The position numbers and the translations under genes were made by a program. A stretch of 20,000 bases of DNA from an uncultured virus (IMG/VR IMGVR_UViG_3300028377_000002). Taxonomy: Duplodnaviria > Heunggongvirae > Uroviricota > Caudoviricetes. Under the pieces are notes generated by a model. It was not told the DNA's origin and made no database searches. It was given only the letters and a program-made list of their open reading frames with translations. The first letter of the stretch is position 1. Every line of letters begins with the position of its first letter. Shown here in pieces: positions 1,362 to 20,000 of the stretch. The DNA lies in IMG/VR virus record IMGVR_UViG_3300028377_000002; one strand, 5' to 3'.

Positions 1362-1832
1362 ATGAAGAAAGAAGATAAAAAAATAGTCTATGTTGATATG
1401 GACGGTGTTTTGTGTGATTATCATGGGGCGTACAGTGATGCAATTAAAATAAATCCCAAAATAGAATATCCGCAATCTCAACATGGGTTTTTCTCGAATT
1501 TAGAACCAATAACAGGTGCTATTGAATCAATGAGGTGGTTGTTGGAATCTAAGTTTTTTGATGTTCATATATTAACAGCACCTAGTATTCATAATCCTAT
1601 GTCTTACACTGAAAAAAGAGTTTGGGTTGAAAAGTGGTTAGGTTTTGATATGGTTAAAAAACTAATTATCACACGAAATAAAGGATTAAATAAAGGTGAT
1701 TTTTTAATAGATGATAATACAGAAGGTAACGGCCAAAGTAAGTTCGAGGGTGAGCTTATACATTTTGGGTCAGAAAGTTTTCCAACGTGGATAGAAGTAT
1801 CAATTTTTTTAAATAAATTGTATGAAAAGTAA
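1362..1832 (+). CDS. 5'(3')-deoxyribonucleotidase (HAD, NT5C family)
   Basis: YVDMDGVL motif I, ILTAP, EKRVWV, LIDD motif. Confidence 0.9.
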   Translation: MKKEDKKIVYVDMDGVLCDYHGAYSDAIKINPKIEYPQSQHGFFSNLEPITGAIESMRWLLESKFFDVHILTAPSIHNPMSYTEKRVWVEKWLGFDMVKKLIITRNKGLNKGDFLIDDNTEGNGQSKFEGELIHFGSESFPTWIEVSIFLNKLYEK

Positions 1833-2166
1833 AGTTTACAAAGAATTAAATAAAGACATCAAATCAATTTTGTTAATCACAGATGGTTGGTTAGTTGGTA
1901 ATGCGGTTAAAAATATCACTGAGGATAAATAAGTGAGGGACTTTGATATAATTGTTCCAAGTAGAGAAAAGTTTCAAGAAATGATACACATGCAAATTAA
2001 CTTATTTCAATATAACATTAATAGCTACGGTGGGATTAAACTAAGTTTAGATGGTAATAGTGTCGACATATGGTGTGAAGAGTTATCACACTTCATAAGA
2101 AACGCTAATAAGGTAACATTTGCCTATAACTATAAAGGCAATATTTCACTTAGTAATGAAAATTAA
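1822..2166 (+). pseudogene. nucleotidyltransferase (CCA/poly(A)-polymerase head-like) with one in-frame TAA at 1930-1932
   Basis: ATG 1822 reads MKSKVYKELNKDIKSILLITDGWLVGNAVKNITEDK*VRDFDIIVP..., in frame with ORF 1933-2166; GWLVG and DxD motifs flank the stop. Confidence 0.7.
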
Positions 2167-2183
2167 TTAATAAATATAAGATA

Positions 2184-3314
2184 ATGGAATTATCAGTAGT
2201 AACATACATCAAAAAACACGGTTTAGAAAAAACAGTGGAAGACTTTAAGTTGAAGTGTAAAGATTACGGACATAAAATTCTTTTAAAATATGACCAATTA
2301 GAATCCGATATGGCTTTTATGGAAGCTAGAGAATGTCGTGGTTTGATTTTAGAAAAAGATACTTGGAAAGTCATGAGCCTTGCTTTCATCCGCTTCTTTA
2401 ATTCAGCCGAAGGTCACGCATCTAAGATTGATTGGAATACTGCCATTATATTTTCAAAAGAAGATGGCTCTTTAATTCAATTATATTGGGATTGGGTTAC
2501 CGAAAGATGGTGTGTTGGTACAAGCGGTATGGCTGAGGCTGAAGGTGAGGTAAATGAAAAAGAAGGTACTACATTCTCAAGATTATTTTGGGATACTGTT
2601 GGAGGTAGATATGGTTTTAATGTTACTAACTTAGTTAAAGGTAGGACCTATGCTTTTGAATTAATGACACCATATAATATCGTTGTAAAACCACATGGTG
2701 TTTCTTCAGTAGCTTTATTGGGTGTTAGAGATTTAAGGTCTTTAAATGAGTTAACATACACTCAATTAGAGTTGGTGGCTAAAGATATAAACGTACCATT
2801 AGTTGAAGTAATCGATATTAATGCTTCAAACGCTGGTCACTTAATGGGAACTTTTGAAGGTATGCCTTTTACAGAAGAAGGTTATGTAGTTTGTGATGCT
2901 AATTTCAATAGAATTAAAATTAAGAACCCAGCTTATGTAGCGATGCATCACACTAAAAGTAAATTAGGTAATCATCACATTTTAGAAGTGTTGAAAACTA
3001 ATGAGATAGATGAATGGGTAGCTACATTTCCAGAGAGGTCCGAAGAAATAATAAACCTTAAAAATGCTTTAAATAAGCTAACGGATGATTTGAAAAATTC
3101 TTGGGTAGAATTAAAACCGTACAAACCAAAAAATATAACTAAAAGTGAACAAAAAAAGTTTGCTATGAAAGTTTTTGAGGTGAATAATAAGAATTTTTCA
3201 AATAAGAGACATACTGGTTTATTCTTTGGACTCAAAGATGGTAAAATCAAATCGGTTAGAGATTATATAAACAATATGAACAATAAAGAGTTATATAATA
3301 TCCTAACTAATTAA
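2184..3314 (+). CDS. T4 Rnl1-like RNA ligase
   Basis: ECRGLIL, RFFN, KEDGSL (motif I), FEL, EGYVV, KIK motifs. Confidence 0.9.
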   Translation: MELSVVTYIKKHGLEKTVEDFKLKCKDYGHKILLKYDQLESDMAFMEARECRGLILEKDTWKVMSLAFIRFFNSAEGHASKIDWNTAIIFSKEDGSLIQLYWDWVTERWCVGTSGMAEAEGEVNEKEGTTFSRLFWDTVGGRYGFNVTNLVKGRTYAFELMTPYNIVVKPHGVSSVALLGVRDLRSLNELTYTQLELVAKDINVPLVEVIDINASNAGHLMGTFEGMPFTEEGYVVCDANFNRIKIKNPAYVAMHHTKSKLGNHHILEVLKTNEIDEWVATFPERSEEIINLKNALNKLTDDLKNSWVELKPYKPKNITKSEQKKFAMKVFEVNNKNFSNKRHTGLFFGLKDGKIKSVRDYINNMNNKELYNILTN

Positions 3315-3360
3315 TTTAAAGTACAGTTTTGTTTCATCTTTAATGTAAATATAATATAAA

Positions 3361-3392
3361 TTTGGTAAATTACGTTTTTTTATGTATATTTG
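3361..3392 (+). promoter_or_regulatory. Bacteroidota-type promoter
   Basis: TTTG(3361-3364)-N20-TATATTTG(3385-3392). Confidence 0.75.
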
Positions 3393-3410
3393 TCAAATAA
3401 TATAATTGTC

Positions 3411-3716
3411 ATGAATAAAAGTATTGAATTAAAGGGTCAAAAGTTTTTCTACAAAATTGATTCATATGATTGTGGTGAATATGGCGCAACAGAGTGTTAC
3501 ACAACAAAATTTTACAAATACAATGGTGTAGGTGAGCGCAAAAAATATTGGTTTTTTGGCCCGACTGTTAAATATGACAAATATAAACGTGTTTTTACCC
3601 TACAAGTAAACATAGAAAACCCAAGTCATACTAAAGAAGAAATTAGGGCGTTATTAAAATCTAAATTAGTAGAATATAATAGAAAACAAGAAATTGAAAA
3701 AGGAGAGATAATATGA
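3411..3716 (+). CDS. hypothetical protein (start moved to ATG 3411)
   Basis: The ORF-track TTG start at 3390 lies inside the -7 promoter box; next in-frame ATG is 3411. Confidence 0.7.
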   Translation: MNKSIELKGQKFFYKIDSYDCGEYGATECYTTKFYKYNGVGERKKYWFFGPTVKYDKYKRVFTLQVNIENPSHTKEEIRALLKSKLVEYNRKQEIEKGEII

Positions 3717-3916
3717 AAACATTACCTAAGACAGCTTCCAACCCTGATGCTATCATAGTCAAGTTAGCTGATAGAATTGCCAACATTGAACATGGTGGTA
3801 AAGTTGAAATGTATGCTAAAGAGTATGATGAATTTAAAGGCGCTTTACAGTTGACCTCACCATCATCCGCAGCAGATATGTGGAAATACTTAGATAATTT
3901 ATTACTAATTAAATGA
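3713..3916 (+). pseudogene. C-terminal remnant of a RelA/SpoT-type HD-domain hydrolase (SAH/Mesh1-like)
   Basis: AIIVKLADRIAN motif begins about 13 residues after the start; the HD/EDT catalytic half is missing. Confidence 0.65.
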
Positions 3917-4623
3917 ATAAAGAAGATTTAATACATTTACGTGATACGCTTAAAGTAAGTGGTGAATTAAAAGGTAAAGATAAAGAAACTATGAGTAAAG
4001 TCTTAAAAAAAGAGATGAGTGAACACATCTTAAAAGAACTTAATATCGAAGGGGAAGTACTAGCTATTTTCCCTTACGGTTCTCGTGTGTATGGAACAGC
4101 CACTAAAGATTCAGACCGTGATTACATCATAGTCATGAAAAGTGCTATGTTGGATAATGGAGCATTCAGAAATAATGCAATATCTAATGAAGACTATTCA
4201 ATTCAAGGTGTAGTTTATTCCAGAGGTGGTTTTATAGATGCCATTAATAGATACGAGATAGGTGCGCTAGAGTGTATATCTTTACCTGAAGATAAAGTTA
4301 TTCTTAAGAAATGGCCATTTAAGGTTACTAAATGGAACGAGAAGGAAATGATTAAAGCTATCATAAGAAAAGCATCGGACAGTTTACATTATTCAAAAAT
4401 GGCATCTAAGAACGGTGATAACGAACGTGCTATTAAAAGTATGTATCACTCTCTTAGAATATTAAGCTTTGGTCTACAATTAAAAGAATATAAGAAAATA
4501 GTAGACTTTAAAGCGTCAAATGATTTGTATGACATATTTATGCATATAGAGTCAGAAGGTTTTGACACTAGAGATTACTTTGATATGTTTGAGTATTTAT
4601 CTAACATGTTAAAAAATAAATAA
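3913..4623 (+). CDS. Pol-beta superfamily nucleotidyltransferase
   Basis: PYGSRVYGTATKDSDRDY (GS...DxD) motif followed by a helical C-terminal domain. Confidence 0.85.
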   Translation: MNKEDLIHLRDTLKVSGELKGKDKETMSKVLKKEMSEHILKELNIEGEVLAIFPYGSRVYGTATKDSDRDYIIVMKSAMLDNGAFRNNAISNEDYSIQGVVYSRGGFIDAINRYEIGALECISLPEDKVILKKWPFKVTKWNEKEMIKAIIRKASDSLHYSKMASKNGDNERAIKSMYHSLRILSFGLQLKEYKKIVDFKASNDLYDIFMHIESEGFDTRDYFDMFEYLSNMLKNK

Positions 4624-4677: not shown

Positions 4678-4750
4678 GGTCGATTAGCTCAGTTGGAAGA
4701 GCGGGAGATTCTAAACCTCTTAGTCATCGGTTCGAACCCGATATCGACCA
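4678..4750 (+). tRNA. amber suppressor tRNA, anticodon CTA (4711-4713)
   Basis: Acceptor GGTCGAT/ATCGACC, A73; D-arm GCTC/GAGC; anticodon stem GGAGA/CCTCT (G-U and A.C ends) with loop TT-CTA-AA; T-arm ATCGG-TTCGAAC-CCGAT; 73 nt, no encoded CCA. Confidence 0.88.
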
Positions 4751-4785
4751 CTAAATAAAAATGTGTAACTTAAAAACAAAAAAAA

Positions 4786-6301: not shown

Positions 6302-6373
6302 GCGCAGGTTCCAGAGCGGCTATGGTGTTGCCCCGCAAGGCAATGTAGGGTGGTTCGAATCCATCCCTGTGCT
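6302..6373 (+). tRNA. atypical tRNA or pseudo-tRNA (U73, Gly/Cys-like body) with aberrant anticodon loop
   Basis: Acceptor GCGCAGG/CCTGTGC plus T73; T-arm GGTGG-TTCGAAT-CCATC; anticodon stem GTTGC/GCAAT closes an 8-nt loop CCCGCAAG with no U33. Confidence 0.7.
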
Positions 6374-6389
6374 CTTAAAATTAAATAAA

Positions 6390-6954: not shown

Positions 6955-8376
6955 ATGGAAATTAAAATAATTTTTGATGAAATAGCTAATACTTCTGGTA
7001 ACAACGCTAAGATGGATGTGCTTCGTAAGTATAAAGACAATCAACTACTTCAAAAGGTATTATATTTAATCAAGTCTAAAAGGGTTAAGTTTTTCATTAA
7101 ACAAATACCTGAATATACTCCTTGGGGTTCTAATTCTAATTATTCGCTATCAGAAGCTGTTAATGATTTAAAAGTCCTTAGTAATAGAGAAGAAACAGGT
7201 CAATCGGCTGTAGCCTATCTTAAGCAGACTTTAGAAAATTTATCGACCGATGACGCTTATATCATTGAAAGAATTATTGATAAAGACCCTAAGATTGGTT
7301 TAGGTAGAACTTTTATTAATAAAGTAATTCCTAATCTTATTGAAAAAACACCATATCAAGGTGCTAAGTCTTTCAGTGAGAAGTTAGCTAGAAAAATTTT
7401 CAAAGATTATGGTTATGCATATAGTGATGTTAAGATGGACGGCCGTTATGCTAATGCCATTATTCAATCTGGTCAAGTAGAATTCGAATCAAGACAAGGT
7501 GAAACAACTTACATTCCAGTAGATTCTCTATTAATTAGAGAGTTATCTAAATTTGGTGATGGTGTACTAAATGGTGAATTAACTATAATTAATGATGATG
7601 GTTCGACAATGGATAGGTACACGTCTAACGGTATTATAGCTTCGATAGTAGATATCGAGGGTTGTGGTAAAATGGGTGATAGAAATGATGAAGATACCTC
7701 TAAAAAGTTATCTGCGTTCAGAAAGAAGCATGGTGATTTTAAAGAAGCTGTCGACAAAATAAGATATACAGTGTGGGATTCAATCACATTAGAAGACTAC
7801 TTCAATAAGAAGTCAGATATTGAGTATAGAAAGCGTTTAGATTATCTATTCAAAAAGACACCTATATTAGAATGCACTAGAGTTGCAATGGTAGAACGTC
7901 TTAAGGTTTATTCATATGAAGAGGCTATGACTCACTTCCAAAATATTTTGTTGAGAGGTGAAGAGGGTACTATATTGAAAGCACCTTTGGCCACTTGGAA
8001 AGATGGTAAACCAAATACTCAAATTAAGCTAAAAATTGAAGTTAATTTAGATTTGAAAGTGATTGGATTTGAGTACGGAAATAAAGGTACTAAAAATGAA
8101 AATGTGTATAGTACAATAAATCTTGAATCGTCTTGCGGAAATCTGCGCACTAATGCGTCTGGGATGAAAGAAGGTATGATGAAAGAAATAACAGAACGTG
8201 CTGATGAATTACTTGGTACTGTGGTTGAGATTCGGTGTTGTGGTTTATCACAAAGTAGTGATGGGGATTATTCTACGCTCCACCCATCAGTGGTTGAATT
8301 AAGAGACGATAAAACCGAAGCTAATTCATTAGCTGAATGTATTAAAATAAGTAATGCTGCTATGGGATTATCTTAA
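6955..8376 (+). CDS. ATP-dependent DNA ligase (phage type)
   Basis: KMDGRY motif I, LNGEL, EGTILK, KLK motifs and C-terminal OB fold ending in LRDDK. Confidence 0.92.
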   Translation: MEIKIIFDEIANTSGNNAKMDVLRKYKDNQLLQKVLYLIKSKRVKFFIKQIPEYTPWGSNSNYSLSEAVNDLKVLSNREETGQSAVAYLKQTLENLSTDDAYIIERIIDKDPKIGLGRTFINKVIPNLIEKTPYQGAKSFSEKLARKIFKDYGYAYSDVKMDGRYANAIIQSGQVEFESRQGETTYIPVDSLLIRELSKFGDGVLNGELTIINDDGSTMDRYTSNGIIASIVDIEGCGKMGDRNDEDTSKKLSAFRKKHGDFKEAVDKIRYTVWDSITLEDYFNKKSDIEYRKRLDYLFKKTPILECTRVAMVERLKVYSYEEAMTHFQNILLRGEEGTILKAPLATWKDGKPNTQIKLKIEVNLDLKVIGFEYGNKGTKNENVYSTINLESSCGNLRTNASGMKEGMMKEITERADELLGTVVEIRCCGLSQSSDGDYSTLHPSVVELRDDKTEANSLAECIKISNAAMGLS

Positions 8377-8483
8377 TTGCATACCACCCAATAAATTCTT
8401 TATTTTTAATTAAAACTTCTTTTTTAATGGTACGTCCTCGATAAATTGGTTTACCTTCATTGTAATAAGACCTTCTTAATTCT

Positions 8484-8594
8484 TTAGATGATTTTAAACA
8501 TAACGTTTTCAAATATGTAAGAAAAAACCATGTTAATACTGACACCCACTGGACCAAAAATTGGGAACGTGCTAAGTTATCATGGGAAGTATAA
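8484..8594 (+). pseudogene. C-terminal remnant of an RNA-ligase-family gene
   Basis: Start-less frame LDDFKHNVFKYVRKNHVNTDTHWTKNWERAKLSWEV-TAA; KYVRxxHVxTDxHW resembles the motif-V tail of phage RNA ligase family proteins. Confidence 0.65.
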
Positions 8595-8615
8595 TCAATA
8601 AATAAATAAAGTGAA

Positions 8616-9641
8616 ATGAAAAAATTTAGTAAGTTCCCAAAAATTGGGCAATTTAGACAAACAGTGAAAGAAGCTAAACTAAGAAACTCTTACATTGGTA
8701 AGGATGATGATGGTGAACCTATCTTTGACAAAACAAAGGCAACACCAGTAATCAACTTCAAGGGTACGGTAAAGTTACACGGTACAAACGCAGGTGTAGG
8801 TCATACCCCTGAAGATGGTATCTGGGCGCAATCTAGAAATAACATTATTACTGTAGATAACGATAATGCTGGGTTCGCCAAATTCGTTCATAGTAATGAA
8901 GAAACTTTCATTGAATTAATGAATGAGATTAGAGTAGAGAACTCAAAAATAGGCGTTAAAGATGCGGTTTACATTTTTGGTGAATGGGTAGGTAAATCAA
9001 TCCAAAAAGGTGTTGCTATTTCTCAGTTAGAAAAAAGCTTCTTCATTTTTGATGTTAAGGTGGTGCCAGAAGATGAGTCTGAACCATACCACTTAGACTC
9101 ACATTACCTAAAATCCAAAGATAACAAAATCTTTAACATTGAAGACTTTGAAACTTATGAGATGGAAATCGATTTTGAGCAACCTGAGAGCGCTCAAAAC
9201 AAATTAGGTGAGCTAACCATGCAAGTTGAAGAAAAGTGTCCTGTGGCCAAAGAATTTGGCTTTGAAGGTGTAGGTGAGGGTATTGTATGGTCAGGTAAGT
9301 TAGGAAATCACAATCTACTGTTTAAAGTGAAGGGTGAGAAGCATAGTGTTTCTAAAGTAAAAACCTTAGCTAAGGTAGATACGGAAAAACTTAACTCTAT
9401 CAATGAGTTTGTTGATTATGCCATAACAGAAAACAGATTCAACCAAGCATTAGGTGTGGTCTTTCCAGATGGTAATATTGATATCAAAAAATTAGGTGAT
9501 ACAATCAAGTGGGTTGTTAGCGATGTACTAGCTGAAGAAAGCGATGTACTAAAAGATAATAATCTTGAACCTAAAGATATCGGTAAATACGTAGCTGCAA
9601 AGGTTAAAAAAATGTTCTTTGCGGAGTATAATAAATTCTAA
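8616..9641 (+). CDS. Rnl2-family RNA ligase
   Basis: KLHGTNAG motif I, QSRN, FGEW, FDVK, EGIVW, FKVK. Confidence 0.88.
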   Translation: MKKFSKFPKIGQFRQTVKEAKLRNSYIGKDDDGEPIFDKTKATPVINFKGTVKLHGTNAGVGHTPEDGIWAQSRNNIITVDNDNAGFAKFVHSNEETFIELMNEIRVENSKIGVKDAVYIFGEWVGKSIQKGVAISQLEKSFFIFDVKVVPEDESEPYHLDSHYLKSKDNKIFNIEDFETYEMEIDFEQPESAQNKLGELTMQVEEKCPVAKEFGFEGVGEGIVWSGKLGNHNLLFKVKGEKHSVSKVKTLAKVDTEKLNSINEFVDYAITENRFNQALGVVFPDGNIDIKKLGDTIKWVVSDVLAEESDVLKDNNLEPKDIGKYVAAKVKKMFFAEYNKF

Positions 9642-13919: not shown

Positions 13920-15680
13920 ATGAAGACATTAAAATTATTCAACGCCGTATTAGCTAAAGATAGTAACGTAAGACCATTTATGTCACTAGAAGGGTTCATT
14001 ATTGAACCTAGTGCTATGTGGGCCAAAGATGAAATCCTTAAGTATTATAAGGAAGAGAAATTAAGTGGTAATGATTTGAATAAAACATTCCACAAGTCTT
14101 GGGAGAAAATACAGTCATCATCAAGATTTGAATTACTAATTGAGCAACTTACTAATTACATTTCAACTTACGGAAGTAATTTTGGTAGTGAGGCTTATAT
14201 ACCAAATGAGGTACTAGAGGTGCCAGACGTGGAGTTAGTCTTTAAAGTCATTAAGGGTTACAGTAAAGAAGAAATGACAAAGAAGTGTCTTAATCTTTTA
14301 AAGTCTGGTATAGCTTTGACAGAAGAAACAGTTGATGACATTATCAGTGTTTTGGTTGATACTTTGGACTATACCTTCACTGGTAACGAGAACTTTAAAA
14401 ATAAGGAGGTTATTGCTAAGATAGCTGACCAGTATGGTATCTACCCAAAAGACCCAGTTGAGTTTTTCAGATATGTCTTTTATAAGACAACAGGGGAGAC
14501 CTTACTTATAAAAAATGAAAGTGCCATAAGTGCAATTGAAAGAAGTTCTTATAACCCAACACTTGATTTCAAGAAATTTGGGTTAGAAAGGTTGTCTGAA
14601 ATATTCAATAGATTTAAACCTTTGTTCTTAGCTTATAAAAACAGGGGACCAAAAACTATTAACAGGATAAGTAAGTTATCTAAGAGGTATCATAAACCTA
14701 TGGTAACCAATCCATTGAACTTAGCCACTAGTTCACGTCTAACTAAAGAAGATTTACACTGGTTAGATAATGCAACACCATTTGCGTTGTTTAAAGCTTT
14801 ATCGGCTTGTTATACGAGGATAAACAACCAAGACACGTTTGTGTACAGAATCAGAAATGGTAAATCTTGGGCAACTGAGTCTAATAAAAACTTCAATAAC
14901 CCAGTGGTGCATGAGAATTATGATTTCATAATTTCTTACATGAAAGATAGGTTCAACTTAAAAGGTAAAAAATTCTTTATACCTCATGATGTTAAATACG
15001 GTCTACCTACATCTGAGAAGATGTTTGTAGGTAATATCCCAACAGGTACTAAATTTTACGGTGAAAAATTAGCAGTTGGAATATATTGGGAAAATTCATG
15101 GGGTGCTAATGACTTAGATTTATCTGGCCTTAATATAGATGGTAAGGTAGGGTGGAACTCATCTTACAATCAGAGAGGTGGTTTAATGTTCTCAGGTGAT
15201 ATCGTTGATGCCCCTAACGGTGCAGTCGAGTACTTGTACGCTAATAAAGGTCTCAGTGCACCTACACTGGTACTTAATAATGTATTTCGGGGTAACTCAG
15301 TTTCTGGGTTCAAAGTAATAATTGGTAAAGGTAGTGATATAGATAAAAAGTATATGATGGACCCTAATAAATTATTAGCTGAAATGAAAACAGAGACGGT
15401 TGGTAAACAAACAGCCTTAGGTATAATGATACCTGAAGTTGAGCAACAATCATTTGTATTACTGAATTTTGGTTCTGGGTCCAGCAGTGTTTCTCTTAAT
15501 GCTAATACCTCCAAACTATTAACTAAAGGGTTGTATCAACAATGGAAAAATCCATTATCATTAAATGAGTTATTAGTTGAGCTAGGTGCTACCTTAACAG
15601 ATTATAAAGAAGAAGAAGGTATAACTGACCTATCATTAGATACTCTAGAAAAAGATACATTAATTAAAATATTTGAGTAA
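13920..15680 (+). CDS. large phage protein with TerD-like C-terminal region
   Basis: 586 aa; W...DLDLS...GWN...SGDIVDAPNGAVEY pattern seen in TerD-related domains. Confidence 0.7.
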   Translation: MKTLKLFNAVLAKDSNVRPFMSLEGFIIEPSAMWAKDEILKYYKEEKLSGNDLNKTFHKSWEKIQSSSRFELLIEQLTNYISTYGSNFGSEAYIPNEVLEVPDVELVFKVIKGYSKEEMTKKCLNLLKSGIALTEETVDDIISVLVDTLDYTFTGNENFKNKEVIAKIADQYGIYPKDPVEFFRYVFYKTTGETLLIKNESAISAIERSSYNPTLDFKKFGLERLSEIFNRFKPLFLAYKNRGPKTINRISKLSKRYHKPMVTNPLNLATSSRLTKEDLHWLDNATPFALFKALSACYTRINNQDTFVYRIRNGKSWATESNKNFNNPVVHENYDFIISYMKDRFNLKGKKFFIPHDVKYGLPTSEKMFVGNIPTGTKFYGEKLAVGIYWENSWGANDLDLSGLNIDGKVGWNSSYNQRGGLMFSGDIVDAPNGAVEYLYANKGLSAPTLVLNNVFRGNSVSGFKVIIGKGSDIDKKYMMDPNKLLAEMKTETVGKQTALGIMIPEVEQQSFVLLNFGSGSSSVSLNANTSKLLTKGLYQQWKNPLSLNELLVELGATLTDYKEEEGITDLSLDTLEKDTLIKIFE

Positions 15681-16237
15681 TGCTTAATTATTATACGATG
15701 TTTGTGTTAGGAACAACAGCTGTGTTTTATATATTATTAATATCAAGGTTTGGCGCTAACTCTAAAAATTTGTTAGAAGATGGTTGCTTTACGATAATAG
15801 GGCCTCCCATCATTGGTTTTATACTTGGTAGTCTTATTTTCTTTTTAGTAGCAGAAACAAAAACGTCAAATTTGGGTAGAACTGTCGAAGTAGTCATAAC
15901 TTCAAACGAATTATTGAAATTAACAACTGATGACGAAATCAATGGCCGTTCGAGAAGAACCTTTTTTGTTGGAGCTGGTTATATTGACGAAGTTAAATAC
16001 TACGAGATTTATAAGACGTTAGATAACGGTGAGAATAAGTATGAAAAGCTTAGAGCTGATAACGTTAACATAAGTTTTTCAGATACACCTAAAATTGTGG
16101 TGTATGGCAAAAAATATGATGACGAGACTAAAAAGAATGAGTGGTTATCTTCAAACGAAGAAGAGAAGGTAGTGTTTGATAGAAAAGTGTTATATGTACC
16201 AGAAGGTACAATTAAAGAAAATTACGAAATAAATTAA
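15680..16237 (+). CDS. membrane protein (two N-terminal TM helices)
   Basis: Two hydrophobic stretches followed by a soluble domain. Confidence 0.75.
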   Translation: MLNYYTMFVLGTTAVFYILLISRFGANSKNLLEDGCFTIIGPPIIGFILGSLIFFLVAETKTSNLGRTVEVVITSNELLKLTTDDEINGRSRRTFFVGAGYIDEVKYYEIYKTLDNGENKYEKLRADNVNISFSDTPKIVVYGKKYDDETKKNEWLSSNEEEKVVFDRKVLYVPEGTIKENYEIN

Positions 16238-16239
16238 TT

Positions 16240-17280
16240 ATGGGAGGAAGAGCATTAAAAAACGTAGAAACAAGAAGGTACTCTAGAGAAGAGTTTGATA
16301 CAGTAAGTAAAAAGCTTGTTGATACTCTATCTGAAACCTTTGAACAAGTCGACGTACCTCTATTTTACACAAATAAAGAATCATTTGGTGACATCGATAT
16401 TATTATAAGTAACGAAGATGTAGAGGGCGAAGAATTGGATGGGTCATTTGTTAGGGAATACATAGAAGTAAACTTTAACCCAAATGAGATTTTCCATAAT
16501 GGTAACTCTTGGTCCTTTGATTATAAGGAAGTTCAAGTAGACTTAATCTTAGTAGACGCAGATGACTTCGATTCAAACTATCATTATCTAGCTTATAATG
16601 ACCTAGGTAATTTTATAGGTAGATTAGCTCAATCAATTGGTGTTAAGTTTGGTCAAGAAGGTTTATGGTACAATAGATACGGTAAGGACAATAGCACCAA
16701 ACATAAGATAATGATATCTAAGGATTATCGAAAGATTTATTCCTTTTTAGGTTTAGATTATGATAGGTTTTTAGAAGGGTTTGAAGGATTAGAAGATATT
16801 TTTAAGTTCACAACAACCTCACATTTATTTAACCCTGAAAGGTTTAAATTAAGTAATCTTAATAAAGTAAATCGTGAGAGAAACCTTAAAAGGAAATCCT
16901 ACATGTCATTTTTAGAATACATAGAGGGTATGGGCCCTAATTATGACTATGATAAGGAATATATTGAGGTAACTAAAGAAAATATAGTTGACATACTGAT
17001 AGACCATTTTCCTGAGGCTAATATTGAGTATTATCTAGCGGTAATCGATTATAAAGAGGCGGTAGATAAATTAGTTAAATTAAAATTTAACGGTGGTATG
17101 ATTAAGGATATGTATAATCTAGAAGGTAAAGAAATAGGTGATGCAATTAGAGCATTCCAAGAATACATTAATACCGTATACGTTGAATGTGAAATAGGTG
17201 ATAACTTTAATAACTACATCATTAATACTTCAGAGTATAAAATCTGGAAAACCTTTGAAATAGTCAATATAATTAAATAA
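16240..17280 (+). CDS. putative nucleotidyltransferase (Pol-X/Pol-beta-like), jumbo-phage type
   Basis: MGGRALK start, KESFGDIDII, QVDLI, YNDLGN motifs. Confidence 0.72.
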   Translation: MGGRALKNVETRRYSREEFDTVSKKLVDTLSETFEQVDVPLFYTNKESFGDIDIIISNEDVEGEELDGSFVREYIEVNFNPNEIFHNGNSWSFDYKEVQVDLILVDADDFDSNYHYLAYNDLGNFIGRLAQSIGVKFGQEGLWYNRYGKDNSTKHKIMISKDYRKIYSFLGLDYDRFLEGFEGLEDIFKFTTTSHLFNPERFKLSNLNKVNRERNLKRKSYMSFLEYIEGMGPNYDYDKEYIEVTKENIVDILIDHFPEANIEYYLAVIDYKEAVDKLVKLKFNGGMIKDMYNLEGKEIGDAIRAFQEYINTVYVECEIGDNFNNYIINTSEYKIWKTFEIVNIIK

Positions 17281-17581
17281 ATGGGTTACCAAGTTCATTT
17301 AACATTTGAAAGTTATCATGTAAAGACTGACACTCAGAAATAAAATTCTGGGTGTCTTTATTTTCAAGTTGAAACCATTCACCCTTCATTCTCTTATCGC
17401 TGTATGTCCTATGCATTACACTTTCAAGTTTTCTAAAATATTCAGATTTAAATTCAGCCACAACTTTAATTTCCTCAGCATTACCTGTTTGAAGTTCTTT
17501 AACCCTGCTGGTACTCTTTCTTGTTGTAATACCAATTTTATAATTTCCGTTACCGTCTTTTAGTAAATAAATGATTCCCAT
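17273..17581 (-). CDS. GIY-YIG superfamily (T5orf172/MUG113-like) protein; start moved to 17581
   Basis: IYLL...YKIGIT...RVKELQTGN...LESVMH...GEWF. Confidence 0.88.
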   Translation of the reverse strand: MGIIYLLKDGNGNYKIGITTRKSTSRVKELQTGNAEEIKVVAEFKSEYFRKLESVMHRTYSDKRMKGEWFQLENKDTQNFISECQSLHDNFQMLNELGNPFI

Positions 17582-17643
17582 AAAGTTCACTTTTAGATGA
17601 TGTTAAGTATAGATATTAAGGATAAAAAGTAAAGGTGTAACCC

Positions 17644-17674
17644 TTGTTTTTAGGGTATAAATATTGTATCTTTG
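17644..17674 (+). promoter_or_regulatory. Bacteroidota-type promoter, probably leaderless
   Basis: TTG(17644-17646)-N20-TATCTTTG(17667-17674)-CTAC-ATG. Confidence 0.7.
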
Positions 17675-17678
17675 CTAC

Positions 17679-18113
17679 ATGATTAAACGCATTTTTGGAA
17701 CCTTCAAAAGGTTCATCAACCACGACAACGGAACAAGAACAATAGTATTTAATAAATTAGTTGATGATTTTGGTAGAGAAATCAAAGGCGAGAGATTCAT
17801 CAATAATGCCATGGTAATATCATGCATGAATTTAAAATTTGGTGATAGATATATGATTAAATATGGAAGTGTTAAAGAGGGTATATTACTTGACATCTGT
17901 CAAACGAAAAAGGTTTATAAAAACCCTAGGTGTGATATCTTCAGAAGATTTAAAGACGAATACCACATAATAAGTGGTAGGTATCAAGGTAAGAAACATC
18001 ACCAACTTGACCGAGAAGACTTAAGAAAATATTGTCTATGGCTTGGTCAAAATACTGATAATGAAATGACAATAAAAAATGTCTTAGGTATCTTAAATAC
18101 AATAGCAACGTAA
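17679..18113 (+). CDS. hypothetical protein (start moved to ATG 17679)
   Basis: The ORF-track TTG start lies within the promoter; first in-frame ATG is 17679. Confidence 0.7.
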   Translation: MIKRIFGTFKRFINHDNGTRTIVFNKLVDDFGREIKGERFINNAMVISCMNLKFGDRYMIKYGSVKEGILLDICQTKKVYKNPRCDIFRRFKDEYHIISGRYQGKKHHQLDREDLRKYCLWLGQNTDNEMTIKNVLGILNTIAT

Positions 18114-18167
18114 AAATAAAAAATATGGTTAACAATAAATTACAACTTATAATAATTAGAAATATTA

Positions 18168-18779
18168 ATGAACAACATGGATAAGAGTTTTTTAGATAAA
18201 GAAGAGTCCCCTACCATCGATGAACTAATAGGTTTATTTTTTAATGTAGACGACACTAACACTATAAAATCATTAAGAACTAAACTTTTAAGTGGACCCG
18301 AAGAGATACCTAGATTAGGTAAACCTAAAGAGATAGAAGATATATCAGGTGCCGTCTGGATAGCAACTAAAATAACTTGGGACACAATAGCTGGTCTAAA
18401 ATACCTAGTAGTCGTTAATAAAGCTTCAGAATTACGAACACTTACTGATGACTTATTTGAAAACTTTACCCATTACCCACTCACTGATATAACAACACAT
18501 AATACTTCAAACGATACGATGGATATTAGTTATGAAATTGTTGAAGAGGGTGATGATTACCCAGTTAATAACGAAGATTATTATAAGCTTATAAATAACG
18601 CCATAGAAAGTGAAGATTTTGAAGAAGCAGCCAGACTTAAGAAATGGAAAGATGGGTTAGATGAACTATTAGAAGAGTTGAAACCTAAAATAAATAAGGC
18701 TTTAAGTGAAGGTAATTTAAGTGCTTTAGACAATAATTACAAATTAATAAACACTTACAGAAGAAATATTAATAAATAA
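18168..18779 (+). CDS. hypothetical protein with UVR (UvrB/UvrC) coiled-coil motif
   Basis: INNAIESEDFEEAARLKK. Confidence 0.72.
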   Translation: MNNMDKSFLDKEESPTIDELIGLFFNVDDTNTIKSLRTKLLSGPEEIPRLGKPKEIEDISGAVWIATKITWDTIAGLKYLVVVNKASELRTLTDDLFENFTHYPLTDITTHNTSNDTMDISYEIVEEGDDYPVNNEDYYKLINNAIESEDFEEAARLKKWKDGLDELLEELKPKINKALSEGNLSALDNNYKLINTYRRNINK

Positions 18780-18833
18780 AGTGACTGAAAATCAAATAGT
18801 TATAAATTAATTTAAAAAAAAGTATAAAAAACC

Positions 18834-18864
18834 TTTGTTTAAGTAAAATGTTTTAGTATATTTG
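18834..18864 (+). promoter_or_regulatory. promoter of the leader / tRNA cluster
   Basis: TTTG(18834-18837)-N19-TATATTTG(18857-18864). Confidence 0.75.
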
Positions 18865-18911
18865 TACTATATATTAATAACAAAGAAGCGAAAGCTCAAA
18901 ATAAAAAGCAA

Positions 18912-19004
18912 ATGAAAAATTTAGTTAACTTATTATCTTTATGTCTGTTGGTGGTAGTCACCAGCCCATCGAGCTATGCAGTTAACTCAAGTTATTTTTC
19001 ATGA
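18912..19004 (+). CDS. putative 30-aa attenuator leader peptide MKNLVNLLSLCLLVVVTSPSSYAVNSSYFS
   Basis: Short ORF between promoter and terminator; contains ATCGAGCT (18968-18975), complementary to the terminator 5' arm. Confidence 0.65.
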   Translation: MKNLVNLLSLCLLVVVTSPSSYAVNSSYFS

Positions 19005-19026
19005 TAACATAAAAGTACAACTAAGT

Positions 19027-19060
19027 AAAGCTCGATAGAAATATCGGGCTTTTTTTTTTT
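19027..19060 (+). terminator. intrinsic terminator / attenuator directly before the tRNA cluster
   Basis: AAAGCTCGATA-GAAA-TATCGGGCTTT hairpin, T11 run at 19050-19060. Confidence 0.85.
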
Positions 19061-19102
19061 GCCTATGTGCCTGAGTGGTCAAAAGGGGCGGTCTGCAAAA
19101 CC
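19061..19102 (+). pseudogene. 5' part of split tRNA-Cys(GCA)
   Basis: GCCTATG acceptor strand, D-arm, GCGGT-CTGCAAA-ACC, then the sequence breaks into AT-rich DNA. Confidence 0.8.
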
Positions 19103-19114
19103 TATTTTTAAAAT

Positions 19115-19188
19115 GTGTAAGTAATCAAGTGGTCCAAGATAGAAGGTTGCAACCCTGAAAGTCGTCAGTTCGAATCTGACCTTACACT
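19115..19188 (+). tRNA. tRNA-Cys(GCA), divergent, weak anticodon stem
   Basis: GTGTAAG/CTTACAC plus T73; loop TT-GCA-AC (anticodon 19149-19151); T-arm GTCAG-TTCGAAT-CTGAC; only 3 Watson-Crick pairs in the anticodon stem. Confidence 0.75.
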
Positions 19189-19254
19189 CACTAATTGCAA
19201 AAGTTTTTTAACTTTTGCAGACTTATAAGACATTTATATAGAAATATAGGTGTC

Positions 19255-19701
19255 ATGGAAATGAAAAGTTGTAGTAAATGTAAAGTAGAAAAAGAAATAG
19301 AAGCGTACTTTTTTAGAAATAAAAAAACTGGTAAACGTCACGCTCAATGTAAAAGTTGTTATAATGAAGTTAGAAAATATAAAGAACATTATGAAAAATA
19401 TAAAGATGAATATAAGGATAGGGCAAATAAAAGAATTAAAACGTTAATTGAAGAGAATAGGATTAATATGTTAACCTTATTAAAACAACATACTTGTATG
19501 GATTGTGGTGAGGATAATATAATAACATTTGAGTTTGACCATAGAGATAGAAATGAAAAAAAATATGGTATTGCAACAATGTTAAAACATTTTAAGTGGG
19601 AACAAATATTAGAAGAGATGAAAAAATGTGACATTGTTTGTGCTAACTGCCATAGAATCAGAACAACAAATCAATTTAATTGGTATAAACTTGATAACTA
19701 A
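19255..19701 (+). CDS. HNH endonuclease (free-standing homing type); start ATG 19255 or 19261
   Basis: N-terminal CSKC..CKSC zinc finger; CMDCG...EFDH...VCANCHRIRT. Confidence 0.9.
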   Translation: MEMKSCSKCKVEKEIEAYFFRNKKTGKRHAQCKSCYNEVRKYKEHYEKYKDEYKDRANKRIKTLIEENRINMLTLLKQHTCMDCGEDNIITFEFDHRDRNEKKYGIATMLKHFKWEQILEEMKKCDIVCANCHRIRTTNQFNWYKLDN

Positions 19702-19733
19702 TCTCATCGTTGGTTCGAATCCAACTATATGCT
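19702..19733 (+). pseudogene. 3' part of split tRNA-Cys
   Basis: TC-TCATC-GTTGG-TTCGAAT-CCAAC-TATATGC-T; pairs with 19061-19067 at 6 of 7 positions; U73. Confidence 0.75.
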
Positions 19734-19745
19734 CAAATATAAAAT

Positions 19746-19830
19746 ACCCCTATAGCTCAGTGGTAAGAGCACTTCCTTTACACGGAAGAGGCGAATAGTA
19801 TTAACGGGAGTTCGATTCTCTCTGGGGGTA
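19746..19830 (+). tRNA. tRNA-Val(TAC) with unusually long (17-nt) variable region
   Basis: ACCCCTA/TGGGGGT plus A73; CTTCC-TTTACAC-GGAAG; variable region AGGCGAATAGTATTAAC; GGGAG-TTCGATT-CTCTC. Confidence 0.85.
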
Positions 19831-19834
19831 CAAT

Positions 19835-19915
19835 GGTAATATGACAGGGCTTATACTAGTTCGCTTGGGTCAAGGGTAATGCATTTACTTATGGGTTCGA
19901 TTCCTATTATTATCA
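19835..19915 (+). tRNA. degenerate tRNA-like element (acceptor and T arms intact, anticodon unassignable)
   Basis: GGTAATA/TATTATC plus A; ATGGG-TTCGATT-CCTAT; non-canonical D and anticodon arms. Confidence 0.5.
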
Positions 19916-20000
19916 CTAAATATCTCTATGCCGCACGCTGGAATACGGAACGGTTTAGAGAAAATGGGGGGGGGGGGTTGAGGAAATTGGCAAAGCCTTT

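Follow-up and report, generated by a model that had tools for sequence, protein, structure and literature searches.

A phage tRNA-Cys gene interrupted by a second tRNA-Cys and a free-standing HNH endonuclease gene: the probable footprint of a homing cassette

Introns and inteins are the usual explanation of how homing nucleases can land inside a gene at no cost. Free-standing homing endonuclease genes can also split a host gene without either, as MobE does in the ribonucleotide reductase gene of Aeh1, and homing-endonuclease genes usually decay. Integrative elements insert into tRNA genes, carrying a copy of the tRNA 3' end, and in the mitochondrial atp6 gene of Allomyces the insertion of an endonuclease ORF has brought in a foreign 3' end of the invaded gene. 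In phage T4, SegB is a free-standing homing endonuclease encoded in the tRNA gene cluster (PMC2330249; also PMC13096335). According to the passages on SegB in PMC2330249, in relatives without SegB the enzyme cuts tRNA genes at their 3' end, around the T-loop motif, its gene is co-inherited with the flanking tRNA genes, and the end of its ORF adjoins a tRNA gene. HNH-type homing endonuclease ORFs in a phage tRNA gene cluster are mentioned in the discussion of the SegB paper (PMC2330249), and HNH genes in mycobacteriophage and mycobacterial tRNA arrays are mentioned in PMC5966550, citing Pope et al. 2014.

The stretch analysed here, referred to as the window, comprises 20,000 nt from an uncultured virus of the Caudoviricetes (IMG/VR IMGVR_UViG_3300028377_000002), and all features described below lie on its plus strand. 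An intrinsic-terminator-like hairpin with a T run (19027..19060; fold -13.7 kcal/mol, z -3.95), found in a terminator scan and common in sequence to loci L001, L043, L046 and L047, abuts the first base of a split tRNA gene. The 5' stump of this original tRNA-Cys(GCA), designated Cys#1 (19061..19102), is 42 nt long and comprises the acceptor strand, the D arm and the anticodon stem-loop as far as the third base of the 3' stem strand, after which the insertion point lies; it is unique in the window (one match at up to three mismatches; none in shuffles). The insert of 599 nt (19103..19701), delimited by comparison with the uninterrupted L046 allele, opens with a 12-nt spacer (19103..19114) that is absent in the L045/L047/L048 allele. 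The spacer is followed by an intact nested tRNA-Cys(GCA) with U73, designated Cys#2 (19115..19189) and called by both ARAGORN and the Rfam tRNA model, by a 10-bp hairpin (19196..19219; -11.3 kcal/mol, z -3.79), and by a free-standing HNH endonuclease gene of 148 aa plus stop (19255..19701), an ORF matching phrog_2255. Its TAA stop codon (19699-19701) directly adjoins the 32-nt 3' stump of Cys#1 (19702..19733), which comprises the final 8 nt of the variable arm along with the T arm, the acceptor strand and U73. The make-up of the insert given in the original prediction, a divergent tRNA-Cys(GCA) plus an HNH gene whose stop abuts the 3' half, was recovered in full at these positions. In one sequencing run the whole stretch lies within a single contig, and in another both the L047-like left part and the HNH part are present; one sequencing-run contig omits 13 nt at 19102 relative to the window. 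No joints were seen in the sequencing-run contigs (all runs examined were contigs), and a single RNA run yielded only scraps of about 20-60 nt.

A metagenome scan with the first 20 nt of the 5' stump returned six loci (L043-L048). L046 (1164 bp), the sole empty-site contig found, has the same flanks as the window and holds both halves within one uninterrupted 84-nt tRNA-Cys gene with a long variable arm, which scores 53.9 bits against Rfam tRNA and whose minimum-energy fold is a cloverleaf with a variable-arm hairpin. The 5' stump is 41/42 identical to this intact gene and the 3' stump 28/32, the four changes in the latter including a paired T-stem change (C-G to U-A). The first 24 nt of the 3' stump equal the intact long-arm tRNA-Cys of L029; in viral contigs, the exact 24-nt pattern had no match. 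The insert takes the place of 10 nt of the L046 variable arm (GCTAGAGAAA), but since AA is present at the right edge in both alleles, that edge is ambiguous by 2 nt and the replaced segment measures 8-10 nt. The two halves are therefore, as had been proposed, the ends of one tRNA-Cys(GCA) gene rather than of two separate tRNA genes, and the uninterrupted relative sought at this locus exists in L046. The proposal had also relied on a cloverleaf obtained by joining 19061-19102 to 19702-19733, which ARAGORN calls as a 74-nt tRNA-Cys(gca) with C3.U70 and C28.U42 mismatches and a G7.U66 wobble; this join test is unspecific, foreign upstream regions with intact tRNAs often scoring too. That the cloverleaf unites halves of one gene stands, but its 5-nt variable loop is not original. 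Since the ancestral gene was long-armed and 8-10 nt have been replaced, both this loop and the pairing of ACC joined to TC are by-products, and the neat 74-nt cloverleaf is, on comparison of the alleles, partly fortuitous.

The nested tRNA scores 51.4 bits against Rfam tRNA at 19115-19188 (threshold 29 bits) and is 74/75 identical in L047; its anticodon stem contains two non-Watson-Crick pairs. Compared with trna4 of Tenacibaculum phage Gundel_1, a relative annotated as 'tRNA-OTHER, undetermined', the acceptor, D and T stems stay paired via double changes, whereas pairing in the anticodon stem is not preserved by paired changes. The HNH gene beside this tRNA in Gundel_1 was considered as a relative of the window HNH gene and rejected, the two proteins being unrelated. 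An 18-mer of the nested tRNA was found, among viral contigs, in the L001 contig only. With respect to the target gene, differences span the region from the anticodon loop to the T stem. For none of the three occupied allele types did the sequence examined (about 4-10 kb per contig) contain an intact tRNA-Cys other than the nested one, in agreement with the idea that the insert supplies a substitute. L046 contains two intact tRNA-Cys(GCA) genes and zero copies of the nested tRNA; the second of these genes, Cys#3, is missing in the window type, truncated in L001, and altered in L047 by a 7-nt duplication in the anticodon loop (Rfam 36.7 versus 62.1 bits). The nested tRNA likely, though not certainly, functions as a tRNA-Cys.

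The protein encoded by the insert matches phrog_2255 'HNH endonuclease' in PHROGs (8e-32), whereas no HNH family in Pfam matched at E<=0.1 and nothing was returned by a sequence search of the PDB. It has an N-terminal four-cysteine zinc-ribbon-like motif and a C-terminal HNH core, and across 18 aligned relatives the residues C6, C9, C32, C35, C81, C84, H96, C129, N131, C132 and H133 are invariant; the same set shows little or no variation at the residues characteristic of the superfamily (D95-H96, N131, H133, C81/C84 and C129/C132). Its assignment to the HNH (beta-beta-alpha-metal) superfamily, made from sequence, rests on the PHROGs match together with this conserved motif. The ORF, which begins with a start codon of its own and is not embedded in another coding gene, is housed in neither a self-splicing intron (no Rfam intron at E<=1) nor an intein. 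Homologues number 113 at E<=1e-10; a single-protein search of viral contigs gave no close HNH relatives beyond the window's own kind. The hairpin that precedes the gene is found at the same place in the cassettes of L055, Streptomyces phage Wofford (L136), L064, L088 and L059, and L001 keeps its left arm only.

The locus is polymorphic for the presence of the insert. L046 is empty; L043, with an intact HNH gene, and L044 are occupied, and both match the window at 99.4% over 16060-20000. L045, L047 and L048, which are 100% identical to each other, are occupied by a degenerate form in which 391 bp of the HNH gene are deleted while its stop codon still adjoins the 3' stump; their 5' stump carries an 8-nt duplication, two anticodon-arm substitutions and a G1.U72 end. 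Upstream of the cassette the window and L047 are 98% similar; at the cassette this similarity breaks, and it is 74% downstream. In the viral contig L001 the 5' stump and the nested tRNA are present, and the HNH gene and the 3' half are absent. Its flanks differ from those of L046 by one substitution in about 990 nt and one T-run length, the swapped segment being the sole other difference; because L001 and L046 differ by a segment swap only, ordinary or microhomology recombination can exchange the nested tRNA independently of the HNH gene. L001 was considered as a refutation of a joint cassette and rejected as such, its odd 3' stump being the Cys#3 end, as L046 and L047 show; since this stump belongs to the second tRNA-Cys gene, L001 is a secondary form. 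The expectation that the nested tRNA travels with the HNH gene holds in that the HNH family repeats the layout, but fails in L001, which has the spare without the HNH gene. We conclude from these alleles that the cassette decays in related contigs, by an HNH deletion in one allele and by loss of the HNH gene and the 3' piece in another, and the comparison shows the two leftover Cys#1 halves to be dead stumps, at the level of sequence.

The same HNH family is found beside tRNA genes in other phages. The following counts cover 80 of the 576 HNH relatives matched in viral contigs (38 full-length, 42 in their C-terminal part only). A tRNA lies within 150 bp in 21/38 and within 50 bp in 18/38 of the full-length matches, compared with 7/42 and 4/42, respectively, of the C-terminal-only matches. 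By tblastn the family is present in 222 phage records at identities of up to 42%, and the four records inspected, which were non-random picks, all adjoin tRNA genes; the HNH gene of Mycobacterium phage Myrna, whose product is 33% identical, begins directly after a tRNA-Asn. Within 135 nt past the HNH stop codon we found 10 orphan T-arm motifs, in 9/39 loci, where 1.8 were expected (Poisson 2e-5). As can be seen in L055 (HNH 56% identical), a terminator is followed by a tRNA-Cys 5' stump, an intact tRNA-Cys, a hairpin, the HNH gene and a 3' stump, the acceptor halves of the split tRNA pairing at 5/7 positions. L064 has the order tRNA-Lys(ttt) 5' stump, hairpin, HNH gene, intact tRNA-Lys(ttt) and 3' stump, with 7/7 acceptor pairs. 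Split tRNAs with 7/7 acceptor pairs are also present in L056 and L088, with no spare tRNA within the 2.3 and 3.4 kb examined, respectively, while in L063, L068 and L091 orphan T arms follow the HNH gene and no matching 5' stump was found. Among six stump loci read by eye, four have the same anticodon in the split and the adjacent intact tRNA.

A pair of Streptomyces phages provides an empty and an occupied site. LukeCage has an intact tRNA-Phe. In Wofford, whose HNH protein is 40% identical to that of the window, the 5' 47 nt of the tRNA-Phe are as in LukeCage and are followed by a new 3' end, in which 3/5 T-stem pairs are recoded, then by a hairpin, the HNH gene and the displaced old 3' end, which equals that of LukeCage and begins directly past the HNH stop codon. 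What separates the two phages is a clean insertion of 517 bp that contains the 26-nt tRNA 3' end as a recoded copy. L055 (tRNA-Cys) and L064 (tRNA-Lys) are independent repeats of the layout, and together with Wofford they show that this HNH family repeats it in other phages.

We consider it probable, from the sequence comparisons, that a free-standing HNH homing-endonuclease cassette has left its footprint here, within a phage tRNA gene, homing itself being inferred. The proposed homing element agrees with the interruption of one tRNA-Cys, intact in L046, by a divergent tRNA-Cys and a free-standing HNH gene, but the insertion was not clean, 8-10 nt being missing. The ancestral gene would have been the 84-nt, long-armed tRNA-Cys(GCA) still intact in L046, which a block of roughly 600 bp (divergent tRNA-Cys, hairpin and HNH gene) would have entered between the anticodon stem and the T arm, with removal of the 8-10 nt. 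In co-infecting relatives, the HNH enzyme would cut or nick those tRNA-Cys alleles that are uninterrupted, close to the variable-arm/T-arm region, and repair off the cassette-bearing genome would copy the nuclease gene and the spare tRNA together. The spare tRNA may escape cutting because it is different at the cut site, and, decoding capacity being kept, the element would therefore be tolerated by the phage; after entry it would decay. A recognition site solely in the anticodon arm would lead to self-cutting, as the 5' stump keeps sequence shared with Cys#3. Members of the family would bring either a whole same-anticodon tRNA (window, L055, L064) or only a recoded 3' end (Wofford). A broader generalization is possible, although we lean slightly towards doubting it: the HNH family may be widespread self-compensating homing elements for tRNA genes of any identity, which enter near the variable-loop/T-arm junction and always bring a repair, either a complete tRNA with the same anticodon or a recoded 3' end that joins onto the resident 5' part. 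Recoding would then confer immunity to the nuclease and be a steady source of tRNA variants, and the conserved hairpin would be a part of the element that controls expression or processing.

Part of the data would also be accounted for by ordinary shuffling of tRNA arrays through illegitimate or short-homology recombination, the HNH gene being a mere neighbour that neither split the tRNA gene nor moves the nested tRNA. L001 and L046 share near-identical flanks around a segment swapped without the HNH gene, a TGCAAAA..TTT microhomology shared with the Cys#3 anticodon loop marks the right junction in L001, the arrays are mosaic (for L047 and L001, 100% stretches stand beside 88% stretches), and tRNA order differs between the window and L001. 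Against this, the same order of parts, with the HNH stop abutting or at most 27 nt from the displaced T arm, recurs in L055, L056, L064, L088 and Wofford, across different tRNAs and HNH genes 37-56% identical. Orphan T-arm motifs occur away from HNH genes too (50 in 110,711 nt), but they are 5.5-fold enriched just past the HNH stop codon. The clean Wofford/LukeCage insertion with its recoded 3' end and the shared anticodons at four of the six stump loci likewise speak against shuffling alone, which we regard as unlikely. That the pieces are unrelated tRNA debris forming a cloverleaf by chance has a negligible probability: the T arm is generic, given a tRNA-Cys family with a G1-C72/C2-G71 start, a chance fit of 4/5 of the remaining acceptor pairs is expected in roughly 7% of cases (a rough estimate), and in L001 the same 5' stump is followed by a 3' stump from a different tRNA, but both pieces lie in one gene with the same flanks in L046, which refutes this explanation, and the 3' piece opens with the 3' side of a variable arm typical of the long-arm tRNA-Cys family (L008, L029).

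Alternatively, the split gene could still be functional, with the insert acting as an intron or the halves being joined by phage RNA repair enzymes, so that two tRNA-Cys species would be made. ARAGORN accepts the joined halves as a cloverleaf, and the window has genes for two ligases, one Rnl1-like and one Rnl2-like, as well as for a kinase/phosphatase-like protein and a nucleotidyltransferase. An intron is opposed by the Rfam searches, in which no intron family matched at E<=1 in the window, L055, L056, L064 or L088, and the group I core whose absence had been predicted for the window did not appear; moreover, a tRNA and an ORF take up the insert, the insertion lies outside the anticodon loop, and 8-10 nt of exon are gone, so that any join would lack that part of the ancestral variable arm. 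The 7/7 acceptor pairs of L088 and L056, which have no spare in 3.4 and 2.3 kb, would fit a functional split tRNA, but the acceptor of L055 retains 5/7 pairs, and in the window's own relatives the halves are not conserved and complementary as those of split or permuted tRNAs are: the 5' stump of L045/L047/L048 is damaged and L001 has no 3' half. Because the halves gather damage in relatives, in the form of duplications, substitutions or the absence of one half, RNA-level rejoining by the phage ligases, which the original prediction had put forward as an alternative, is argued against, and we consider a functional split gene very unlikely.

If the homing cassette is the correct reading, the cost of insertion is apparently met in another way than by an intron or intein, the element bringing a spare, or a recoded piece, of the gene that it breaks. 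If general, this would explain the odd duplicates, stumps and same-anticodon pairs of phage tRNA arrays, and would link selfish nucleases to the turnover of phage tRNA sets. Such sets are tied, in the relevant passages of PMC13096335, to escape from tRNA-cutting host defences. The loci also offer natural pairs of sites, one presumably cut and the other presumably immune, from which the specificity of this large and as yet uncharacterised HNH family could be worked out, and the Wofford/LukeCage pair makes the idea testable in cultured phages.

Several known insertions resemble the locus in part. In the MobE/Aeh1 case both protein pieces still work together, whereas in the window the pieces appear dead and function would come from the spare gene in the insert. 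As in integrative elements, the Wofford insert opens with a replacement 3' end and displaces the old 3' end as a direct repeat; unlike in such elements, the mover would be an HNH nuclease with no integrase, the repeat is recoded (3/5 T-stem pairs) rather than identical, and the window insert brings a whole tRNA. The Allomyces atp6 insertion is alike in that a homing-type ORF comes with a replacement for the displaced part and the old part is left as a pseudogene, but it concerns a protein-coding gene, a eukaryotic organelle and a different nuclease family. For the HNH ORFs of the phage tRNA cluster mentioned at the outset, we know of no report of a split tRNA with a spare.

The main texts covered by a literature search, Pope et al. 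2014 not among them, contained no account of a nuclease gene that splits a tRNA gene and supplies a spare. In its passages on mycobacteriophage tRNA-array HNH genes, PMC5966550 gives no mechanism, no comparison of empty and occupied sites, and no split gene with a replacement; the passages on SegB in PMC2330249 likewise do not describe a split target or a same-anticodon replacement inside the insert. SegB, as presented there, is a GIY-YIG enzyme encoded between intact tRNA genes, unlike the window protein, which is an HNH protein and falls outside that family. Like SegB in the same account, the window nuclease gene sits among phage tRNA genes with the end of its ORF abutting tRNA sequence, and the HNH protein plausibly works like SegB. 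Homing nucleases are already known from phage tRNA clusters, T4 SegB being an example, and the split locus is a variant of this kind.

The window is an AT-rich phage segment with a tRNA array at its end, in which a tRNA-Cys(GCA) gene lies in two pieces. The 42-nt 5' piece (19061–19102) follows a terminator-like hairpin and T run (19027–19060), and the 32-nt 3' piece (19702–19733) begins immediately after the stop codon of a 148-codon ORF (19255–19701). Between the 5' piece and the ORF are a 12-nt spacer (19103–19114), a complete tRNA-Cys(GCA) (19115–19189; Rfam, 51.4 bits) and a 10-bp hairpin (19196–19219; −11.3 kcal/mol, z −3.8). Neither Pfam nor a PDB sequence search gave an HNH match to the ORF; it matched phrog_2255 ('HNH endonuclease') at 8e-32 and has every residue invariant among 18 aligned relatives, namely four N-terminal cysteines, two more cysteine pairs, H96, N131 and H133. 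When the two tRNA pieces were joined by script, ARAGORN called a tRNA-Cys(gca). Together, the ARAGORN join, the Rfam and phrog_2255 matches and the conserved residues bear out the original prediction of a tRNA-Cys split by a nested tRNA-Cys and an HNH gene.

A search with the protein upstream of the split tRNA found one related viral contig (L001, 77% identity), and a metagenome scan with the first 20 nt of the 5' piece as query found six further loci. In L046, the only empty-site contig found, both pieces form a single 84-nt gene, which scores 53.9 bits as a tRNA and folds into a cloverleaf whose long variable arm carries a small hairpin. Its 5' part is identical to the window at 41 of 42 positions and its 3' part at 28 of 32, and between them are ten bases, GCTAGAGAAA, missing from the window. 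A class-II-like variable arm is unusual in tRNA-Cys. Phages often have long-arm tRNA-Cys(GCA) genes, such genes (82–86 nt) being present in 22 of 40 viral loci, L002–L040 among them, that were selected by an anticodon-arm 18-mer and hence are not a random sample. Since the 3' piece in the window opens with the 3' side of the long variable arm, the insert replaced 8–10 nt, the position of its right edge being uncertain by two A's. The proposed 74-nt cloverleaf and its 5-nt variable loop are a by-product that ARAGORN accepts as a join; the original gene was 84 nt long, as in L046. The cassette was thus inserted into a formerly intact tRNA-Cys gene.

Four allele types were distinguished at this locus. 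Type A (the window, L043 and L044, 99.4% alike) has the complete cassette and an intact HNH gene. Type B (L045, L047 and L048, mutually identical and 98% like the window upstream) has the left part as in the window without the 12-nt spacer, and its 5' piece shows two substitutions and a duplication of 8 nt. Its HNH gene has lost 391 bp, including the start, between short repeats; the residual ORF tail, which diverges from the window visibly more than the upstream flank does, still abuts the 3' piece with its stop codon. Type C (L001) retains the 5' piece, the spacer and the nested tRNA, but of the hairpin just the left arm, and passes directly into the 3' part of another tRNA-Cys gene. The empty type (L046) has the intact long-arm gene, 12 nt and then a second tRNA-Cys, Cys#3 (62.1 bits). 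Apart from one substitution in ∼990 nt and the length of one T run, the flanks of L001 and L046 are identical, and L001 is therefore a segment swap on an L046 background; its right junction falls within the anticodon loop of Cys#3, on a brief stretch of shared sequence. Cys#3 itself is missing from type A and in type B scores 36.7 bits, its anticodon loop bearing a 7-nt tandem duplication. Within the ∼4–10 kb of each contig, two intact tRNA-Cys genes were found in the empty genome, which has no copy of the nested one, and in each occupied type the nested tRNA-Cys is the sole intact one. The nested tRNA was linked to the HNH gene or a remnant of it in six of seven related contigs besides the window and, by occupied allele type with the window's own included, in two of three. 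The cassette exists in states of decay.

The window codes for two RNA ligases, a kinase/phosphatase-like protein, a nucleotidyltransferase, a DNA ligase and a polymerase-like protein, and the original prediction had allowed, in view of the ligases, that the two halves might be rejoined as RNA. This is unlikely. No Rfam intron family matched at E ≤ 1 in the window or in four more loci with split tRNAs, the joined halves lack part of the ancestral variable arm, and the halves are damaged in type B while one is absent from type C. No joints were seen in the sequencing runs examined (all contigs), and the single RNA run yielded only fragments of about 20–60 nt.

Several other features of the window were recorded. 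A full RNA-repair-looking set (1362–4623 and 6955–9641: the kinase/phosphatase-like protein, an Rnl1-like ligase, the nucleotidyltransferase and an Rnl2-like ligase, together with the DNA ligase) would suit a phage that tRNA-cutting host defences attack. At 4678–4751 (+), a tRNA of good form (Rfam, 62.1 bits; 'tRNA-Pyl' in ARAGORN) has the anticodon CUA and would be of amber-suppressor type; the ORFs of the phage read well in the standard code. A tRNA-like gene at the Rfam threshold (6302–6374, +; 29.5 bits) has an irregular anticodon loop and a 2-base 'anticodon' in ARAGORN. Positions 15732–16204 (∼470 bp, within a 185-aa ORF at 15680–16237, phrog_8077) are not matched in L001, where the flanks (99% and 92% identity) enclose ∼90 bp. 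A minus-strand T5orf172/MUG113-type (GIY-YIG-like) ORF just after the polymerase-like gene (17273–17590), also present in L001, could represent another selfish nuclease gene of the window. Ahead of the tRNA array, a ∼170-bp AT-rich intergenic block (18764–18934), repeated at ∼80% identity in relatives (L001, 6415–6587; L047, 5782–5930), may be a repeated promoter region. Beyond the split gene, an 86-nt tRNA-Val(UAC) whose variable region is longer by ∼14 bases (19746–19831, +) and an odd tRNA-like gene (19835–19917, +; tRNA-Pro(tgg) by ARAGORN in L001, 25.7 bits and below the Rfam threshold in L046) are in reversed order in L001. A run of 12 G in a tRNA-Leu-like stretch (19966–19977; 8 G in L043) is either a length-variable homopolymer or a sequencing artefact.

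The split arrangement recurs within the same nuclease family. Because automatic ARAGORN scoring of joins was unspecific in controls, the split-tRNA cases rest on reading of the sequences. In the viral locus L055, whose HNH protein is the closest among the viral-contig relatives listed (56% identity), a terminator is followed by a tRNA-Cys 5' stump, an intact different tRNA-Cys, a hairpin, the HNH gene and the 3' stump; the 5' stump ends just past the anticodon loop and the acceptor halves pair at 5/7. In L064 the split gene is a tRNA-Lys(ttt): its 5' stump precedes a hairpin and the HNH gene, and an intact tRNA-Lys(ttt) comes next, ahead of the 3' stump (acceptor pairing 7/7, two of them G.U). 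A hairpin and HNH gene also split a tRNA-Phe in L056 (acceptor pairs 7/7) and, in L088 (1419–1985), the variable loop of a Cys-like tRNA with anticodon UCA and U73, both halves of which are intact (7/7). No spare tRNA was found in 2.3 kb of L056 or 3.4 kb of L088, the latter having no other tRNA of any kind within that distance. In L059, two intact tRNA-Pro(tgg) genes flank the HNH gene. All six loci that were folded have a hairpin separating the tRNA from the HNH start, and in five of them z ≤ −2.

The cleanest illustration of the principle is a pair of Streptomyces phages. LukeCage has an intact tRNA-Phe; Wofford, whose HNH gene is 40% identical to the window's, has the first 47 nt of that tRNA-Phe unchanged, completed by a new 3' end of 26 nt; a hairpin and the HNH gene follow, and immediately past the HNH stop codon comes the old 3' end, identical to that of LukeCage. 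In the new 3' end, three of five T-stem pairs are changed on both sides, and the loop and acceptor strand are unchanged. The element thus supplies, in recoded form, the part that it displaces. Several other phages of this group lack the HNH gene here.

By tblastn, the family occurs in 222 phage records at ≤42% identity. The HNH gene lies against tRNA genes in all four opened (MarvelLand, Elmer, Myrna and Ziko), which were not random picks, Ziko having been taken because its entry named a tRNA. In an alignment-based scan of viral contigs that kept 80 of 576 relatives, a tRNA lay within 150 bp at 21 of 38 loci with full-length matches (18 within 50 bp) and at 7 of 42 with matches to the C-terminal part only (4 within 50 bp). 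In the 135 nt past the HNH stop, ten T-arm-like motifs outside called tRNAs were found, spread over 9 of 39 loci, where the remainder of the same loci predicts 1.8. Tenacibaculum phage Gundel_1 carries an unrelated HNH gene (2905–3471), the final 15 nt of which run into the beginning of a tRNA-Pro(TGG), in an array that also contains a relative of the nested tRNA.

We suggest that the HNH enzyme would cut uninterrupted alleles near the variable-arm/T-arm region and that repair would then carry the cassette over into the cleaved genome. The spare tRNA would escape cutting because its sequence departs from that of the target all the way from anticodon loop to T stem, and would preserve cysteine decoding; its anticodon stem has two non-standard pairs, and comparison with the Gundel_1 relative gives that stem no support from paired changes. 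The irregular anticodon stem is one of several points that weaken a homing interpretation; in addition, the 5' stump retains the anticodon-arm sequence that it shares with Cys#3, the L001/L046 swap requires no HNH gene, and L046 is the one empty-site contig found.

Homing nucleases in phage tRNA clusters are already known. Among openly readable main texts, none was found that describes a nuclease gene splitting a tRNA gene and bringing along either a spare of the same anticodon or a recoded 3' end. In mycobacteriophages, HNH genes have been linked to tRNA repertoire diversity (PMC5966550, citing Pope et al. 2014). The behaviour suggested here for the HNH cassette is the one reported for T4 SegB, which cuts tRNA genes at their 3' end and is co-inherited with flanking tRNA genes (PMC2330249).
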